Part shown: positions 3,194 through 55,317 of the stretch, one piece after another
Layout: each line of letters starts with the position of its first letter
How positions within the stretch are numbered: the first letter of the stretch is position 1
Origin: Candidatus Parcubacteria bacterium
GTDB taxonomy: Bacteria > Patescibacteriota > Patescibacteriia > Patescibacteriales > UBA12075
Length of the DNA: 64,000 nt
Direction: 5' to 3'
Assembly (NCBI GenBank): GCA_963814275.1
Contig: CAWFCE010000001.1
Span: 387,307-451,306, forward strand
Position numbers and translations under genes: made by a program
Notes under the pieces: model-generated
Told to the model about the DNA's origin: nothing
Database searches by the model: none
What the model saw: the letters and a program-made list of their open reading frames with translations, nothing else

Positions 3194-3269
3194 AACAGAT
3201 AACAGATAATAGATAACAGATAACAGTTTTTCCTGTCGTCTGTTATCTGTTATCTGCCGTCTGTTATCT
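3194..3269. repeat. Intergenic word hairpin (AACAGAT words)
   Basis: (AACAGAT)n at 3194-3226, loop TTTTTC, then complementary (ATCTGTT)n at 3233-3269. Confidence 0.8.
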
Positions 3270-10896: not shown

Positions 10897-11035
10897 CCGG
10901 ATTAAAAGTCCGCAAGCCGTTCGAATTTTATACGGCTTGCGGACATTGTTTTTCCAATTGACAAGTTAAAAATAAGGTTTAAAATTAATTGTGTATAATT
11001 AATAATAAAAATTACAGCAATACGAATTCGACATT

Positions 11036-11055
11036 CCTGCCTATCGGCAGGCAGG
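11036..11055. repeat. Variant copy of the dispersed 20-nt GC palindrome
   Basis: CCTGCCTATCGGCAGGCAGG, 27 nt upstream of the CBS gene ATG. Confidence 0.8.
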
Positions 11056-11082: not shown

Positions 11083-11601
11083 ATGTGGGTCAAAGATTAC
11101 ATGTTCAAAAACGTTTGCACGATTTCGCCCGATACCACTATTGGCGAAGCTGTCAAATTCATGGTCGAGAATAAAACCAATAGTGTCGTCGTGGTTGACG
11201 AAAACCGTAAACCGATCGGTACTCTGTCCTCCTATACCCTGGTGCGCGAAGTCGTGCCGGCATATCTGAAGGACGACCCGATATTTTCCCAATACGGCAA
11301 AGAAGGCACATTCAATAAGTACGCCCAGCGCATGAAAGACGGAAAGGTCAGGGACCTCATGCATAAGGATTTCCATATCCTGAGCGTCCATGACGCCATG
11401 ATCGAGGCCGCGTCCTATTCCATCAAAGCTGAACGGCGCATTCTGCCGGTGGTTGACGATGAGGGCAAGCTGATCGGAGCGGTGACGCGTACTTGCATCA
11501 AGAACGCTTTATACAACACCCTATTCAAAGACGCGCCGATCAATCCGGAAAACGGCGGCTGTGCCAGCTGCAGCGAACGGGTGTCGAGCCATAAGGAATA
11601 A
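11083..11601 (+). CDS. CBS-pair domain protein
   Basis: Two CBS-like units: VKDYMFKNVCTISPDTTIGEAVKFMVENKTNSVVVVD and VRDLMHKDFHILSVHDAMIEAASYSIKAERRILPVVD. Confidence 0.8.
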   Translation: MWVKDYMFKNVCTISPDTTIGEAVKFMVENKTNSVVVVDENRKPIGTLSSYTLVREVVPAYLKDDPIFSQYGKEGTFNKYAQRMKDGKVRDLMHKDFHILSVHDAMIEAASYSIKAERRILPVVDDEGKLIGAVTRTCIKNALYNTLFKDAPINPENGGCASCSERVSSHKE

Positions 11602-13152: not shown

Positions 13153-13240
13153 AGTAAGCAGTAAACAGTAAAAAGTAAGCAGAACTATAATTTTACCAGC
13201 CTCTGTTTACTTTTTACTGTTTACTGCTTACTGTTTTATT
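13153..13240 (+). terminator. Word hairpin terminator (GTAAGCAGTAAACAG words)
   Basis: 13153-13182 pairs with 13203-13233 (about 1 mismatch), followed by TTTTATT. Confidence 0.65.
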
Positions 13241-19078: not shown

Positions 19079-19676
19079 TATTCCTCGGGGCTCTGCCCCG
19101 GGGTTTCCTTCAGGAGGGAAAGTTTGAAAACCGTAGGTTTTCAAGAGGTTGATTAACAGCTAAACTATGTATATATGGATAAAGATGATAAACATATATA
19201 CAAAAGGCACAGCAAGACATTGCTACTCTACCACATAGTTTTTCCTGTAAAATATCGACGCTCTATTCTAACTCCTGAAGTTGAAAATTCATTGAAAGAT
19301 ATTTGTCTGGAAATTGGAATTTGCTATGAAATGAATTTTGTAGAAATCGGAGCCGACGAAAATCACGTACACTATTTAGTCCAGGGAATTCCAAGCATGT
19401 CGGTTTCAGAAATGGTGAAAACGATCAAAAGCATAACTGGAAAAGGGCTATTCAAGAAGCATCCGGAAATCAGGAAAATATTGTGGGGTGGAAATCTTTG
19501 GACATCAGGTTTTTATGCAAACACGGTCGGACAATACGGTAATGAAAAGATGATTAAGGAATATATCGAAAAACAGGGCGGAAGCTACAAAAAGATACAC
19601 GAAGGTCAGCTAAAACTGTTTGATTAACAAAAACATCGGAACATCCCCGATACCTCGGGGCTCTGCCCCGGGGTAA
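19079..19676 (+). mobile_element. IS200/IS605-family insertion sequence
   Basis: A Y1 transposase gene is flanked on both sides by the same motif CCTCGGGGCTCTGCCCCGGGG (19083-19103 and 19652-19672), which forms a GGGGC/GCCCC hairpin. Confidence 0.8.
19175..19627 (+). CDS. tnpA: IS200/IS605 family transposase TnpA (HUH Y1)
   Basis: 150 aa. Contains LLLYHIVFPVKYRR, HVHYLVQ (HUH) and GFYANTVGQYG (catalytic Tyr region). Confidence 0.9.
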   Translation: MDKDDKHIYKRHSKTLLLYHIVFPVKYRRSILTPEVENSLKDICLEIGICYEMNFVEIGADENHVHYLVQGIPSMSVSEMVKTIKSITGKGLFKKHPEIRKILWGGNLWTSGFYANTVGQYGNEKMIKEYIEKQGGSYKKIHEGQLKLFD

Positions 19677-19718: not shown

Positions 19719-19743
19719 TATTCTATTATGAGTAATATATCCG

Positions 19744-19827
19744 TGCCCAGGGAGGGAATCGAACCCTCATGAGATTACTCCCACACGATTTTGAGTCGTG
19801 CGCGTCTACCAATTCCGCCACCTGGGC
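19744..19827 (-). tRNA. tRNA-Leu(CAA), intact, class II
   Basis: The reverse complement folds by hand into a cloverleaf. Acceptor stem GCCCAGG/CCTGGGC. The D region GGCGGAATTGGTAGACGCG matches my recollection of E. coli tRNA-Leu. Anticodon loop CTCAAAA, long variable arm, T arm GAGGG-TTCGATT-CCCTC. No CCA is encoded. Confidence 0.9.
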
Positions 19828-20066
19828 TAATGTATAGATTTAATATATTCTCTGCCGCAGCCCGATTTTAAAAATATTTCTCTTTTTCTTGCTTCGGCTC
19901 TTGATGAATATTTTTCAACTATTAAAGTTGTAAAAGGTCTATATGGTTTAGTAGTTTTATTATAGCCATAATTATGTTGTTTTATTCTTCTTGCCGGGTT
20001 ATCAGAAATGCCGATGTAAATGTAATTAAGTTTTAAGCTTTTAATAGCGTATACAAAGTAATCCAT
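19827..20066 (-). CDS. GIY-YIG nuclease family protein (79 aa, URI/COG2827-like), copy 1
   Basis: Contains YFVYAIKS...NYIYIGISDNPARRIKQHN...SRAEARKREIFLK. The TAG stop shares one nucleotide with G1 of the intact tRNA-Leu. Confidence 0.85.
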   Translation of the reverse strand: MDYFVYAIKSLKLNYIYIGISDNPARRIKQHNYGYNKTTKPYRPFTTLIVEKYSSRAEARKREIFLKSGCGREYIKSIH

Positions 20067-20130
20067 GTCGATTTTGAGCCTGCCTGCCGGCAGGCAGGTC
20101 GTGCGCGTCTACCAATTCCGCCACCTGGGC
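20067..20130 (-). other. tRNA-Leu 5' fragment disrupted by the 20-nt palindrome (copy 1)
   Basis: It is identical to tRNA-Leu from nt 1 to the end of the 5' anticodon-stem strand. CCTGCCTGCCGGCAGGCAGG (20079-20098) follows, then CTCAAAATCG, then AC plus the ORF ATG. Confidence 0.9.
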
Positions 20131-20369
20131 TAATGTATAGATTTAATATATTCTCTGCCGCAGCCCGATTTTAAAAATATTTCCCTTTTTCTTGCTTCGG
20201 CTCTTGATGAATATTTTTCAACTATTAAAGTTGTAAAAGGTCTATATGGTTTAGTAGTTTTATTATAGCCATAATTATGTTGTTTTATTCTTCTTGCCGG
20301 GTTATCAGAAATGCCGATGTAAATGTAATTAAGTTTTAAGCTTTTAATAGCGTATACAAAGTAATCCAT
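20130..20369 (-). CDS. GIY-YIG nuclease family protein, copy 2
   Basis: Its protein is identical to copy 1. There is one synonymous nucleotide difference (20184 c versus 19881 t). Confidence 0.85.
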   Translation of the reverse strand: MDYFVYAIKSLKLNYIYIGISDNPARRIKQHNYGYNKTTKPYRPFTTLIVEKYSSRAEARKREIFLKSGCGREYIKSIH

Positions 20370-20433
20370 GTCGATTTTGAGCCTGCCTGCCGGCAGGCAG
20401 GTCGTGCGCGTCTACCAATTCCGCCACCTGGGC
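20370..20433 (-). other. tRNA-Leu 5' fragment disrupted by the 20-nt palindrome (copy 2)
   Basis: Same structure as 20067-20130, with the palindrome at 20382-20401. Confidence 0.9.
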
Positions 20434-23595: not shown

Positions 23596-23721
23596 AAATC
23601 CTCCTTTTGTTTTTTTATCTGCTTATTATAAATTTAAAAGATTTTTTATACTAACATTTTTTTCTTACAATGTCAACCATAAAAACAAAAAATCACCTAA
23701 AATTAGGTGATTTTTATGCCG

Positions 23722-23793
23722 TAGCCCATAGGGGAATCGAACCCCTGTTTCATGGATGAGAACCATGCGTCCTAACCATTAGACGAATGGGCC
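23722..23793 (-). tRNA. tRNA-Glu(CUC), intact
   Basis: The reverse complement is GGCCCAT-TC-GTCT-AATGGTTA-GGAC-G-CATGG-TTCTCAT-CCATG-AAAC-AGGGG-TTCGATT-CCCCT-ATGGGCT-A. Its layout parallels E. coli tRNA-Glu as I recall it. It has a G1-U72 wobble pair. Confidence 0.85.
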
Positions 23794-24147
23794 ATATTGA
23801 TTAAATTTATCAAATAAGAAATTTATATTTCATAAAATATGATTTTGCGAATAATTTTATTTGACGAAGGGAATCGCCATGTCATCCGACATGGCGCCCC
23901 GTCGGATGACGGGGCGAACCCCTGTTTCATGGATGAGAACCATGCGTCCTAACCATTAGACGAATGGGCCATATTGATTAAATTTATCAAATAAGAAATT
24001 TATATTTCATAAAATATGATTTTGCGAATAATTTTATTTGACGAAGGGAATCGCCATGTCATCCGACATGGCGCCCCGTCGGATGACGGGGCGAACCCCT
24101 GTTTCATGGATGAGAACCATGCGTCCTAACCATTAGACGAATGGGCC
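23794..24147 (-). repeat. Two head-to-tail 177-bp units (tRNA-Glu nt 1-56 + 40-nt double hairpin + ATTCCC + 75-nt AT-rich tail)
   Basis: 23794-23970 and 23971-24147 look identical by eye. The hairpin inserts are at 23875-23914 and 24052-24091. Confidence 0.9.
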
Positions 24148-24464
24148 AGTAAAATGACGAATGACGAATTACGAATGACGAATTATTTTATGATAATTGT
24201 GAAAAAATTATATCAATATGAATTAATCTAGATTATAATATAGATTAAAATATTTCAATATTCCAGTTATCTGTTGTCTGCTATCTGTTATCTTTCGTCA
24301 TTTAATATCAGTAGTTATTGTAAAATATAATAATAACTTAGTCAATCGCACTGTTTTTCCACAAAATTATAAACAGAACTGTACACATTTTTTGTGCATT
24401 AACCCACATTATAGGCACTTAGGAGGGGTATTGACAAAATCTGCAATTGTTCTATAGTTTAGTG

Positions 24465-42392: not shown

Positions 42393-42407
42393 AATAGTAG
42401 GCGTAGT

Positions 42408-42495
42408 GTAGGCTTGTAGGCTTGTAGGCTTGTAGGCTTGTAGGCTTGTAGGCTTGTAGGCTTGTAGGCTTGTAGGCTTGTAGGCTTGTAGGCTT
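42408..42495 (+). repeat. Perfect tandem octamer (GTAGGCTT) x 11 in the lexA leader
   Basis: Counted by hand from 42408 to 42495. Degenerate copies flank it (GTAGGCGTAGT upstream, GTAGGCGGTAGGCGG downstream). Confidence 0.95.
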
Positions 42496-42561
42496 GTAGG
42501 CGGTAGGCGGTTTATTAATTTTATACTTAATACTTAATACTAAATACTAAATACTAATCAC

Positions 42562-46872: not shown

Positions 46873-47586
46873 ATGCTAATTACAGTTAAAGACCTGAGAA
46901 AACGCTACGAGAACGAAGGGCTGGTGACAAAGGTGTTGCACGGCCTTTCTTTTGTAATTGAAGAAGGGGAATTCGTCGCGATCATGGGTCCGAGCGGCTC
47001 GGGCAAATCGACCCTCATGCATATTCTGGGACTACTCGACCGGGCTTCGAGCGGCTCGTACCGATTTGCCGACCGTGAAGTGACGAATCTGGATGACAAT
47101 GAGCTGGCCCAGCTGCGCAACCGCCAGATCGGCTTCGTTTTCCAGTCCTTCAATCTTCTGCCGCGTACGACCGTTTTGGACAACGTCAAACTGCCGCTCA
47201 CCTATGCCCAGGACAAAAGCCGGGCGGACGAACGGGCCGCCGCGGTCCTCGAAAGCGTCGGTCTCGGGCACCGGCTCAGGTATTATACCAACCAGATATC
47301 CGGCGGCGAGAAGCAGCGGGTGGCGATCGCCCGGGCGCTGGTCAATAAGCCGTCGATTATTTTCGCCGATGAGCCGACCGGCAATCTTGATTCCAAGTCA
47401 GGCATCCAGGTAATGGAAATATTGCAGAAGCTCAATGACGCCGGCAATACGATCATTCTGGTCACCCATGAGACCTATACCGCCGAACATGCCAAGCGGA
47501 TAATCAACATCCGCGACGGCCGGATCACGAGCGACCAGCCGGTCGCCAACCGCCGCATCGCGCATGATGGGGAAATACTGAAGTGA
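46873..47586 (+). CDS. ABC transporter ATP-binding protein (MacB/LolD type)
   Basis: Walker A GPSGSGKST, signature SGGEKQRVAIARAL, Walker B IIFADEPTGNLD. Confidence 0.95.
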   Translation: MLITVKDLRKRYENEGLVTKVLHGLSFVIEEGEFVAIMGPSGSGKSTLMHILGLLDRASSGSYRFADREVTNLDDNELAQLRNRQIGFVFQSFNLLPRTTVLDNVKLPLTYAQDKSRADERAAAVLESVGLGHRLRYYTNQISGGEKQRVAIARALVNKPSIIFADEPTGNLDSKSGIQVMEILQKLNDAGNTIILVTHETYTAEHAKRIINIRDGRITSDQPVANRRIAHDGEILK

Positions 47587-47763
47587 TTTTTCATATTTCA
47601 ATATTTTTTAGTAAGCAAACAAAGAATTGGCCGTTATTGAAGTTTAATCAAACAATTTTCAATAATCCAATTTTCAATTTTCAATCAATATAAGATATTA
47701 ACATTTAATTTTCAACGTTTTGTTTTGATATTAAATATTGAAAATTAAATATTGATTGAATTA

Positions 47764-47783
47764 CCTGCCTGCCGGCAGGCAGG
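47764..47783. repeat. Exact copy of the dispersed 20-nt GC palindrome
   Basis: CCTGCCTGCCGGCAGGCAGG lies at the centre of an AT-rich spacer, 31 nt upstream of the permease ATG. Confidence 0.9.
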
Positions 47784-55216: not shown

Positions 55217-55317
55217 GCAATAGGTTTTAGGCAATAGGCAATAGGCAATAGGAAAAAGCTAGAGCCTAGAGCCTATAGCCTAAAGCCTATTGCCTAAAAC
55301 CTATAGCCTAAAAACCT

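Follow-up and report, generated by a model that had tools for sequence, protein, structure and literature searches.

A 20-nt palindrome, CCTGCCTGCCGGCAGGCAGG, recurs in a 64-kb stretch of a Candidatus Parcubacteria genome. We call the exact 20-mer PAL, and we refer to the whole stretch of 64,000 nt as the window. Two of its copies interrupt partial duplicates of a tRNA-Leu gene that lie beside tandem genes for a very small GIY-YIG nuclease. We found that PAL is a discrete 20-nt insertion, that it is tightly linked to a cassette composed of the nuclease gene and tRNA sequence, and that relatives carry the empty site. Sequence and profile comparisons indicate that the nuclease is homologous to Ssn and related to UPF0213/SLX1. 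The Ssn proteins (~94 aa, single-domain GIY-YIG, cd10448) are site-specific single-stranded DNA (ssDNA) nucleases (Chenal et al., Nat Commun 2025, PMC11893778). PAL is probably the cognate insertable hairpin of an Ssn-like mini-nuclease that is encoded in a tRNA-anchored cassette.

PAL interrupts tRNA-Leu pseudo-copies beside a nuclease gene

On the minus strand, the cassette of the window runs from 20433 to 19743: a 303-bp unit is present twice in tandem, and an intact tRNA-Leu(CAA) gene comes after it. Each unit contains, in this order, tRNA-Leu nt 1–32, PAL, tRNA-Leu nt 33–42, the dinucleotide AC, and an open reading frame (ORF) for a 79-aa GIY-YIG mini-nuclease. The 303-bp tandem repeat extends over 19795–20433 with 99% identity; the two units differ by one base, which is synonymous where it falls inside the ORF.

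The first 5' pseudo-copy of the tRNA (20372–20433, minus strand) matches nt 1–32 of the intact gene at 20433–20402 and nt 33–42 at 20381–20372, and a PAL copy (20382–20401, no strand assigned) sits between the two parts, after nt 32 in the anticodon loop. It is followed by ORF copy 1 (20130–20369, minus strand; PF01541, E = 2e-15), and the G of the TAG stop codon of this ORF is nt 1 of the next tRNA copy. The second 5' pseudo-copy (20069–20130, minus strand) again spans nt 1–42, with PAL after nt 32 in the anticodon loop (20079–20098, no strand assigned), and leads into ORF copy 2 (19827–20066, minus strand), which encodes a protein identical to that of copy 1. The stop codon of ORF copy 2 overlaps nt 1 of the intact tRNA-Leu(CAA) (19743–19827, minus strand), which was called by both ARAGORN and Rfam. 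This intact gene anchors the cassette and gave us an empty site with which to compare the PAL insertion. Compared with it, each pseudo-copy corresponds to nt 1–42 plus exactly 20 nt after nt 32. The initial annotation of the window had placed PAL precisely where the tRNA-Leu fragments break off; PAL does not lie there, because the tRNA sequence continues for 10 nt beyond it. Copies 20079 and 20382 are residents of a cassette that was itself tandemly duplicated.

The empty site is found in relatives, whose TPR–tRNA-Leu(CAA)–ParA locus has the tRNA and lacks the fragment, PAL, and the GIY-YIG gene. The ParA of these relatives is 86% identical, and the locus is syntenic. The closest named relatives are Falkowbacteria and Parcubacteria; exact-sequence look-ups of the window proteins gave no recorded match.

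Other small insertions were noticed at tRNA genes of the window and its relatives. In two relatives (L236 and L237), the 13-nt 3' end of tRNA-Leu(CAA), CCTCCCTGGGCAC, is repeated beyond a 55-nt insert that contains a hairpin. The repeat lies just 3' of the tRNA, in the stretch 1790–2520, as one copy in L236 and as two tandem copies in L237, and the insert is another tiny insertion at tRNA-Leu(CAA), here at its 3' end. In the window, a second tRNA-anchored tandem cassette (23738–24148, minus strand) lies upstream of tRNA-Glu(CTC) (23721–23793). It comprises 2.3 units of 177 bp with 100% identity, each made of tRNA-Glu nt 1–56, a 40-nt double GC hairpin in the T loop (CCCCGTCATCCGACGGGG plus CGCCATGTCGGATGACATGGCG), and ~80 nt of AT-rich DNA with no ORF. 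This cassette follows the same logic as the tRNA-Leu cassette, but its palindrome is different and it has no nuclease gene.

The cassette recurs with different tRNAs and in different phyla

Among 128 exact PAL sites in genomes, 17 lie within 400 nt of a tRNA, and the cassette architecture recurs with different tRNAs and in different phyla. Protein-first searches were then used to remove selection on PAL. In 76 metagenome loci obtained by protein alignment, exact PAL (32 loci) or a variant with at most 3 mismatches (11 loci) was present within 140 nt 5' of the nuclease ATG. This association, in 43/76 nuclease genes found independently of PAL, supports the link between PAL and the tRNA-Leu/GIY-YIG cassette far more strongly than the window alone, from which it had been proposed. 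An intact tRNA began 0–45 nt past the nuclease stop codon in 39 of these loci. The cassette tRNAs were mostly tRNA-Leu isoacceptors, with Arg and Asp also represented, and Gly, Lys, and Asn were seen in other loci. PAL-family matches clustered strongly at the genes: 76 were found within 350 nt of nuclease genes versus 2 in the remaining 110 kb, a more than 50-fold difference in density. No solo PAL copies were found in the 110 kb around 80 homologous nuclease genes.

Two mirror-image arrangements were observed. In architecture A, a partial 5' tRNA copy with PAL is followed by the nuclease gene and an intact tRNA, and PAL lies 8–38 nt 5' of the ATG. In architecture B, an intact tRNA is followed by the nuclease gene and a 3' tRNA fragment with a palindrome in the T or anticodon loop. 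In A, the first base of the duplicated segment is tRNA nt 1; in B, the duplicated segment stops precisely where the tRNA does, at its 3' end. Both the architectures and the tRNA hosts are interleaved on the protein tree. In general, the nuclease gene sits at a tRNA gene, mostly tRNA-Leu, with an intact tRNA on one side and a partial duplicate on the other, and the duplicate almost always bears one or more clean PAL insertions in or near the D, anticodon, or T loop.

We compared the pseudo-copies with the intact tRNA in 44 cassettes of other genomes and found 45 insertions. Of these, 29 were exactly 20 nt long and the rest were 16–19-nt variants or doublets. The insertions fell after tRNA nt 8, 11, 14/15, 22/23, 31/32, 39, 44, 49, 61–67, and 74, and several pseudo-copies held two or three palindrome insertions. 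Nearly every alignable pseudo-copy in the protein-selected sample had a palindrome, which in both architectures is always in the pseudo-copy; one palindrome-free cassette (L074) was seen outside this sample. Tandem cassette arrays are frequent, and the cassette is found at different tRNA species. Deletion derivatives (L001, L004, L030, and L083) keep the tRNA fragment and PAL without the nuclease gene, and in one locus (L060) PAL stands ahead of a GIY-YIG domain in a non-tRNA context.

The association is also apparent in the predicted proteins. Among the best 120 homologues, ~27 of the ~30 N-extended ORFs encode the PAL peptide or a near variant (counted by hand), and this peptide is preceded by a tRNA-encoded peptide. 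When N-extended homologues were clustered at 50% identity, 18 of the 68 representatives encoded the PAL peptide or a variant. Gene callers routinely translate palindromes and tRNA fragments as N-terminal extensions; in P0278, three tandem variant palindromes are translated as SADRQA-SADRQA-SADRQA before the nuclease domain.

Two further loci are worth recording. In L232, from ~830, the tRNA downstream of a GIY-YIG cassette is split by an insertion with a Cys-rich, HNH-like ORF (...CxxCHxxIH), which judging from its sequence is probably a group I intron. In L093 (4758–5042), a more distant GIY-YIG ORF lies within an insertion in 23S rRNA-like sequence and has no palindrome.

The mini-nuclease is a single GIY-YIG domain related to Ssn

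The 79-aa window nuclease has PF01541 as its sole Pfam match and no accessory DNA-binding domain, and no NCBIfam family matched it. Its AlphaFold model (pLDDT 94) shows the whole protein as one GIY-YIG domain, and in structure searches the model matched best to the nuclease domain of Slx1, a structure-specific endonuclease, and to BH0048, a UPF0213 protein. Residues Y6, Y17, G19, R26/27, H31, and E63 are conserved, which fits an active GIY-YIG core. The nuclease family has 2,769 representatives at E <= 1e-10.

Aligned with Ssn homologues flanked by NTS repeats (L295 and others, on viral contigs), the window nuclease showed 28% identity over 60 aa by BLASTP (E = 2e-6). Profile–profile comparison (hhalign) of the window family with Ssn gave a probability of 97.5%, E = 7e-12, and 25% identity over 67 columns. 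The window family and Ssn are about equally close to UPF0213, and both profiles match UPF0213 structures. Presence or absence at a conserved tRNA site, tandem arrays, and jumps between tRNA species are compatible with homing, by a protein without a DNA-binding domain.

PAL is found across phyla and inserted in diverse contexts

We scanned GTDB for exact PAL, with one genome per species (596 Gb, ~1 chance match expected), and found it in at least 120 genome stretches. The phyla among the matches listed were Patescibacteria, Bacteroidota, Omnitrophota, Planctomycetota, Gamma- and Deltaproteobacteria, Thermodesulfovibrionales, and Chloroflexi; four of the matches listed were cultured isolates, of Winogradskyella, Flagellimonas, Longitalea, and Flavivirga (Bacteroidota). 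Exact PAL was also found in 35 viral-contig stretches, and one 29-kb viral contig holds at least 5 exact copies, counted over overlapping stretches. Literature searches gave no match for the PAL sequence, nor for GIY-YIG together with tRNA in Patescibacteria. A sequencing-adapter or assembly artifact was ruled out by the isolates, a metagenome-assembled genome with a complete chromosome, the many independent studies, the in-frame copies, and the compensatory variants.

The flanks of PAL are unrelated between sites. PAL lies in a long open frame at 27/128 sites, compared with 63% of random positions. A subset of the in-frame sites are genuine insertions, translated as LPAGRQ, in FtsK, ribosomal protein S6, and other proteins. 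In L043, deletion of PAL plus one G restores the reading QEGNIF, which points to 21 nt (inspection by eye). PAL is nested at the center of another PAL in five loci (L018, L042, L021, L223, and L227), and some copies hold a small foreign cargo of 9–104 nt at their center; none of these cargos, each lying between two half-palindromes, was a nuclease gene. The clean 20-nt insertions, the unrelated flanks in many phyla, and the nested copies all support the view, already put forward in the initial annotation, that PAL is a miniature mobile hairpin.

The same annotation held that PAL always lies just upstream of a start codon, which is contradicted by the wider sample. PAL was within 40 nt of a start at 12/113 intergenic sites (10.6%) versus 11.1% of random intergenic positions, and thus was not enriched; this test used crude gene calls (longest ORFs of at least 100 aa), with which 11 sites that lie no more than 60 nt past a called start could be classed either way. 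The palindrome of architecture B does not precede the gene at all but lies downstream of it. PAL was within 40 nt of a stop codon at 24/113 sites versus ~11% in the control, about a twofold difference, to which no significance test was applied.

The immediate flanks show a base bias: T is found at +1 in 42% of sites, mirrored by A at −1, and the A|T pair surrounds PAL at 41/164 sites. Abutting direct repeats of 7–8 nt occur at 6/164 sites versus ~0.3 expected; 97/164 sites have no abutting repeat and 49/164 have one of 1 nt, close to the control. The flanks also show a period-7 self-similarity of 0.306 versus 0.258 in controls (p = 6e-9), with period 8 enriched too, and the palindrome continues perfectly into the flanks only slightly more often than in controls.

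Heptamer repeats are themselves common in the window, which has ~30 intergenic period-7 arrays with different units (for example 3194–3226, 13203–13236, 24153–24183, 42523–42557, and 55259–55310). These arrays resemble the STRR heptamers of cyanobacteria and make up much of the spacers. A perfect 8-mer array, TGTAGGCT repeated 11.9 times, lies at 42407–42501.

One intact tRNA gene with PAL was also seen. In an IMG/VR contig (L225, 2239–2330), PAL sits in the variable loop of a complete, initiator-like tRNA-Met, which ARAGORN still recognizes as a tRNA of 92 nt; in the related L202, the tRNA-Met is truncated directly after the palindrome.

The hairpin and its variants

PAL folded as ssDNA has a stem of 8 bp and the loop CCGG (−8 kcal/mol); this fold had been proposed for the RNA form. 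Recurrent variants are CCTGCCTACCGGCAGGCAGG, CCTGCCTGTCGGCAGACAGG, CCTGACTGCCGTCAGGCAGG, CCTGTCTGCCGACAGGCAGG, and CCTGCCTACCGGTAGGCAGG, and a second recurrent 20-mer, pal2, has the sequence CCTGTCTACCGACAGGTAGA. The changes in the variants of the PAL family are compensatory and preserve hairpin pairing. We analyzed covariation in 19 variants and found that two offset hairpins with 6-bp stems and 4-nt loops (positions 1–6/11–16 and 5–10/15–20) perform better than the full palindrome: the observed covariation was reached by 0/500 shuffles for the offset registers versus 60–138/500 for the full register. This preference is a hint only, because the variant set is small, hand-collected, and partly related. 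If real, the offset hairpins would give the element a direction, as the Ssn repeat has. With respect to the nuclease gene, asymmetric variants were oriented 10:3 upstream versus 4:5 downstream, a trend from which we draw no conclusion.

Different palindrome species fill equal positions in pseudo-tRNA copies. A 33-nt element, CCCGCCCG...CGGGCGGG, occupies the D-loop of a tRNA-Val in L039 (~1040–1075). Downstream of the nuclease gene in L124, L126, L190, and L194, pal2 occupies tRNA-Leu T-loops, once with a PAL-like element nested centrally.

Solo copies in the window

Besides the two cassette copies, the window holds two solo copies. The exact copy at 47764–47783 (no strand assigned) lies in the AT-rich spacer between an ABC ATPase gene (46873–47586) and the first MacB/FtsX permease gene, 31 nt from the permease ATG (47815). 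The second, at 11036–11055 (plus strand), is a variant with 2 mismatches, CCTGCCTATCGGCAGGCAGG, and lies 27 nt 5' of a CBS gene (ORF start at 11083). This variant retains a 6-bp stem (CCTGCC/GGCAGG) with the loop TATC and the tail CAGG. In the cassette, PAL is 12 nt from each of the GIY-YIG ATGs (20369 and 20066, minus strand). The positions of the four copies, three exact and one with 2 mismatches, and the distances of 31, 12, and 27 nt were as first annotated. No further match was found in the window at up to 3 mismatches, and 0/100 dinucleotide-preserving shuffles of the window contained a match. Pfam searches of the window ORFs returned MacB_PCD/FtsX, CBS, GIY-YIG, and an IS200-type Y1 transposase.

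Both solo copies would have landed in heptamer-repeat spacers. Copy 11036 lies in register amid heptamers (ACGAATT CGACATT / CGTAATT CGTAATT CGACATT). The near-duplicate flanks of copy 47764 had been read as a hint of insertion; the enrichment of abutting repeats across sites is in line with this, but most sites have none, and the hint is a weak one. A weak sigma-70-like match (47725–47753, consensus match only) would place copy 47764 at the 5' end of the transcript, and a promoter-like site at 10958–10985 (11/12 matches) would place copy 11036 in the 5' untranslated region (UTR). There were no terminator-like calls on any of the four window copies, and a T-run, as in intrinsic terminators, was not found in their flanks. 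If PAL affects the messages for MacB, CBS, or GIY-YIG, it would do so as a side effect of its landing place.

Weighing the explanations

If PAL is the cognate hairpin of the mini-nuclease, the nuclease would, by analogy with SsnA, recognize PAL in ssDNA. We infer that nicking then drives the spread of PAL, the spread of the cassette, and its tandem amplification, with conserved tRNA sequence serving the cassette as a landing site. Recombination through this conserved sequence plausibly contributes to the invariance of PAL across phyla. Several observations weigh against this explanation. The window family lacks the C-terminal KKWxRAWKLxLIE block of Ssn, and PAL is outside the published Ssn repeat motif (SRM). 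We know of no strand-transfer activity in hydrolytic GIY-YIG nucleases, and therefore pasting of the hairpin would need host ligation or repair. The target preference of PAL, mainly the A|T pair, is weak, and there is no consistent target-site duplication. Solo PAL sites are not significantly enriched in predicted hairpin loops, whether of all hairpins (21% vs. 19%) or of those with stems of at least 6 bp (9% vs. 7%). About 100 of the 128 exact genome sites and nearly all of the viral ones have no GIY-YIG gene in their 8–15-kb stretch; thus, action in trans or simple inheritance must be assumed there. Lastly, the palindrome in nearly every pseudo-copy could reflect selection for interrupted repeats, not nuclease-driven insertion.

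PAL may instead be an independent selfish hairpin that is moved by another host or mobile factor, prefers tRNA-like DNA, and among such DNA is tolerated only in pseudo-copies, the GIY-YIG gene being an unrelated homing-type cassette. The many PAL sites in genomes and phage contigs without a nearby GIY-YIG gene speak for this, as do the several independent insertions per pseudo-copy, the complete tRNA-Met with PAL in its variable loop on a phage contig, and the tRNA-Glu pseudo-copies of the window, which carry another double hairpin and no GIY-YIG gene. Against it, PAL is more than 50 times denser beside nuclease genes than in their flanks, and it precedes a GIY-YIG domain in a non-tRNA context in L060. 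The homologous Ssn family has a demonstrated nuclease–hairpin partnership (PMC11893778), and no other enzyme was seen, Y1 not being associated with PAL in ~240 loci. We consider an independent hairpin unlikely, although it is the most serious of the rivals. Somewhat less likely again is retention of PAL for the benefit of the cassette, either by breaking the repeat and so opposing loop-out deletion or mis-processing, or as a regulatory or binding site of the nuclease in the 5' leader; solo copies would then be rare by-products, for instance of gene conversion or cassette decay. The palindrome in nearly every pseudo-copy, its position shortly 5' of the ATG in architecture A, and the deletion derivatives that keep fragment and PAL speak for such a benefit. 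But any insertion would break the repeat, and yet one 20-mer recurs across phyla; in-frame copies in essential genes and nested copies cannot be cassette remnants; and a leader or operator role is not general, because the palindrome is 3' of the gene in architecture B.

Two explanations offered in the initial annotation now appear much weaker. That PAL is a host expression signal (the operator of a dimeric regulator, an RNase III site, or a 5'-UTR hairpin) was suggested by the window, where all four copies lie 12–31 nt 5' of an ATG and promoter-like matches would put both solo copies in 5' leaders; a stable 5' hairpin can stabilize mRNA. Beyond the window, the frequency near starts is that of random intergenic positions (10.6% vs. 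11.1%, 113 sites) and stop-proximal sites are about twofold more frequent than expected. Moreover, 27/128 sites are in long open frames, several of them true in-frame insertions, the downstream genes are unrelated, and sequence identity across phyla does not suit a lineage-specific regulator. With copies within coding genes, tRNAs, other hairpins, and phage contigs, an operator or an RNase III or translation hairpin fails as a general explanation, and we rate a host signal as very improbable. The least probable explanation, in our judgment, is that PAL is a REP/REPIN-type element (REP, repetitive extragenic palindromic) moved by an IS200/IS605-family Y1 transposase such as that encoded at 19175–19627 (plus strand). 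This Y1 gene lies ~115 nt from the tRNA-Leu 3' end, and Y1 enzymes are established to act on ssDNA hairpins and to insert without target duplications (PMC11893778). Yet phmmer with the window Y1 as query gave, besides the window's own gene, one weak match (E = 2.5e-4) in ~240 PAL or GIY loci totaling ~1.3 Mb, and mobilization by Y1 is not supported. The GTAG/CGTC tag typical of REPs, as defined in PMC3733652, is absent from PAL and from its flank logo, and the IS200 copy of the window has its own, different end hairpins (by inspection). Taken together, the mobile hairpin and its link to the cassette survive from the earlier interpretation, whereas the start-codon rule, the Y1 enzyme, the general regulatory role, and the break-point position do not.

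A more far-reaching form of the explanation that we favor is that nuclease and 20-nt hairpin constitute a two-part self-propagating element of an undescribed kind, which is possible but doubtful. The nuclease would nick exposed ssDNA hairpins, such as the stem-loop junctions of tRNA genes, slipped heptamers, and its own hairpin; the recognition hairpin would be pasted into the nick; and the nuclease gene would home beside tRNA genes, using the universally conserved tRNA sequence as homology arms. Such an element would explain why PAL is conserved to the letter and how the cassette came to spread over bacterial phyla. PAL would then be the smallest known actively propagated insertion.

The observations matter in several ways. 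With PAL as the cognate hairpin, the principle of a nuclease with its own hairpin (Ssn, 2025) would gain a second, sequence-distinct pair, widespread in Patescibacteria, Bacteroidota, and others. Direct sequence evidence for a hairpin as a discrete insertable unit, which was lacking in the Ssn work, comes from tRNA copies with and without PAL next to each other and from nested and in-frame PAL copies, and the recurring partial-duplication architecture ties the nuclease gene to tRNA genes. A 20-mer that is identical across phyla is a very unusual bacterial repeat. The cassette accounts for the "tRNA fragments" and the odd N-terminal extensions (…LPAGRQ…) that keep appearing when genomes of uncultured bacteria are annotated. 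The nuclease is a candidate new specificity for ssDNA-cutting tools, and with 79 aa and 20 nt the pair is a tractable system to study the movement of very small repeats.

Comparison with known systems

The closest parallel is Ssn, exemplified by SsnA and NTS-dRS3 in Neisseria. Hairpin repeats (NTS/SRM) border the Ssn genes, with further copies scattered over the genome, an architecture that the authors liken to an insertion sequence; SsnA binds the hairpin solely as ssDNA, on one strand, and cuts beside it (PMC11893778). The window system shares with Ssn a small protein that is one GIY-YIG domain and has no DNA-binding domain besides, and a gene adjoined by a short GC-rich hairpin repeat that rarely lies within genes and, in the window, also occurs away from the nuclease gene. 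It differs in several respects. PAL is a 20-nt perfect palindrome, and the protein is ~78 aa versus 94. The SRM consensus HGTCWYN(0-2)YYVSBRHN(0-5)WNVSBRGN(0-2)RNCYNB matched nothing in the window, nothing in 184 kb of nuclease loci, and neither PAL nor pal2, compared with 262 matches in NTS loci as a positive control. Unlike Ssn genes, the genes of the window family lie at tRNA genes with a partial tRNA duplication, the hairpin being inside the pseudo-tRNA; tRNA is unmentioned in the Ssn paper (PMC11893778). PAL seems to be present in only a few copies per genome, not in hundreds, and the hosts sampled here are mainly Patescibacteria and Bacteroidota, whereas those of Ssn are Pseudomonadati.

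PAL also resembles the REP/REPIN–RAYT systems in being a short GC-rich extragenic non-autonomous hairpin that flanks one dedicated enzyme gene and has no regular target-site duplication. In contrast to these systems, its partner is a GIY-YIG hydrolase and not an HUH tyrosine transposase, there are no REPIN doublets, and PAL is identical across phyla whereas REPs are lineage-specific. Nor does PAL have the features of a miniature inverted-repeat transposable element: it consists of two abutted 10-nt arms with no fixed-length target-site duplication, and its tRNA insertions add exactly 20 nt. Integrative elements duplicate part of a tRNA gene at their att sites on integration (PMC9897764). Like them, the cassette has a partial tRNA on one side and an intact tRNA on the other, with a duplication bounded by the tRNA gene; unlike them, the insert is ~250–300 bp, has no integrase, can adjoin a duplicate of the 5' portion or of the 3' portion of the tRNA, and has a partial copy that is always interrupted by the palindrome.

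As a GC-rich palindrome in an AT-rich genome, with some in-frame peptide insertions, PAL is reminiscent of the Rickettsia palindromic elements and the mobile GC clusters of yeast mitochondria (the latter mentioned in PMC8811140), which are ~30–150 nt long, restricted to single lineages, and in some cases in-frame in genes. To our knowledge, these elements have no associated nuclease gene and no tRNA-linked cassette. Of similar size are the small dispersed repeats (SDRs) of cyanobacteria. These were reportedly described by Elhai et al. (Genome Res 2008;18:1484, a paper cited in PMC3116915) as 21–27-nt hairpin elements that often lie in tandem heptamer repeats, are sometimes nested in themselves, and were proposed to be among the smallest mobile elements; they are said to be limited to one subgroup of heterocyst-forming cyanobacteria, and we know of no enzyme that moves them. 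PAL is, like the SDRs, a ~20-nt hairpin found in heptamer repeats and nested in itself. Unlike the SDRs, it spans many phyla and has a candidate enzyme.

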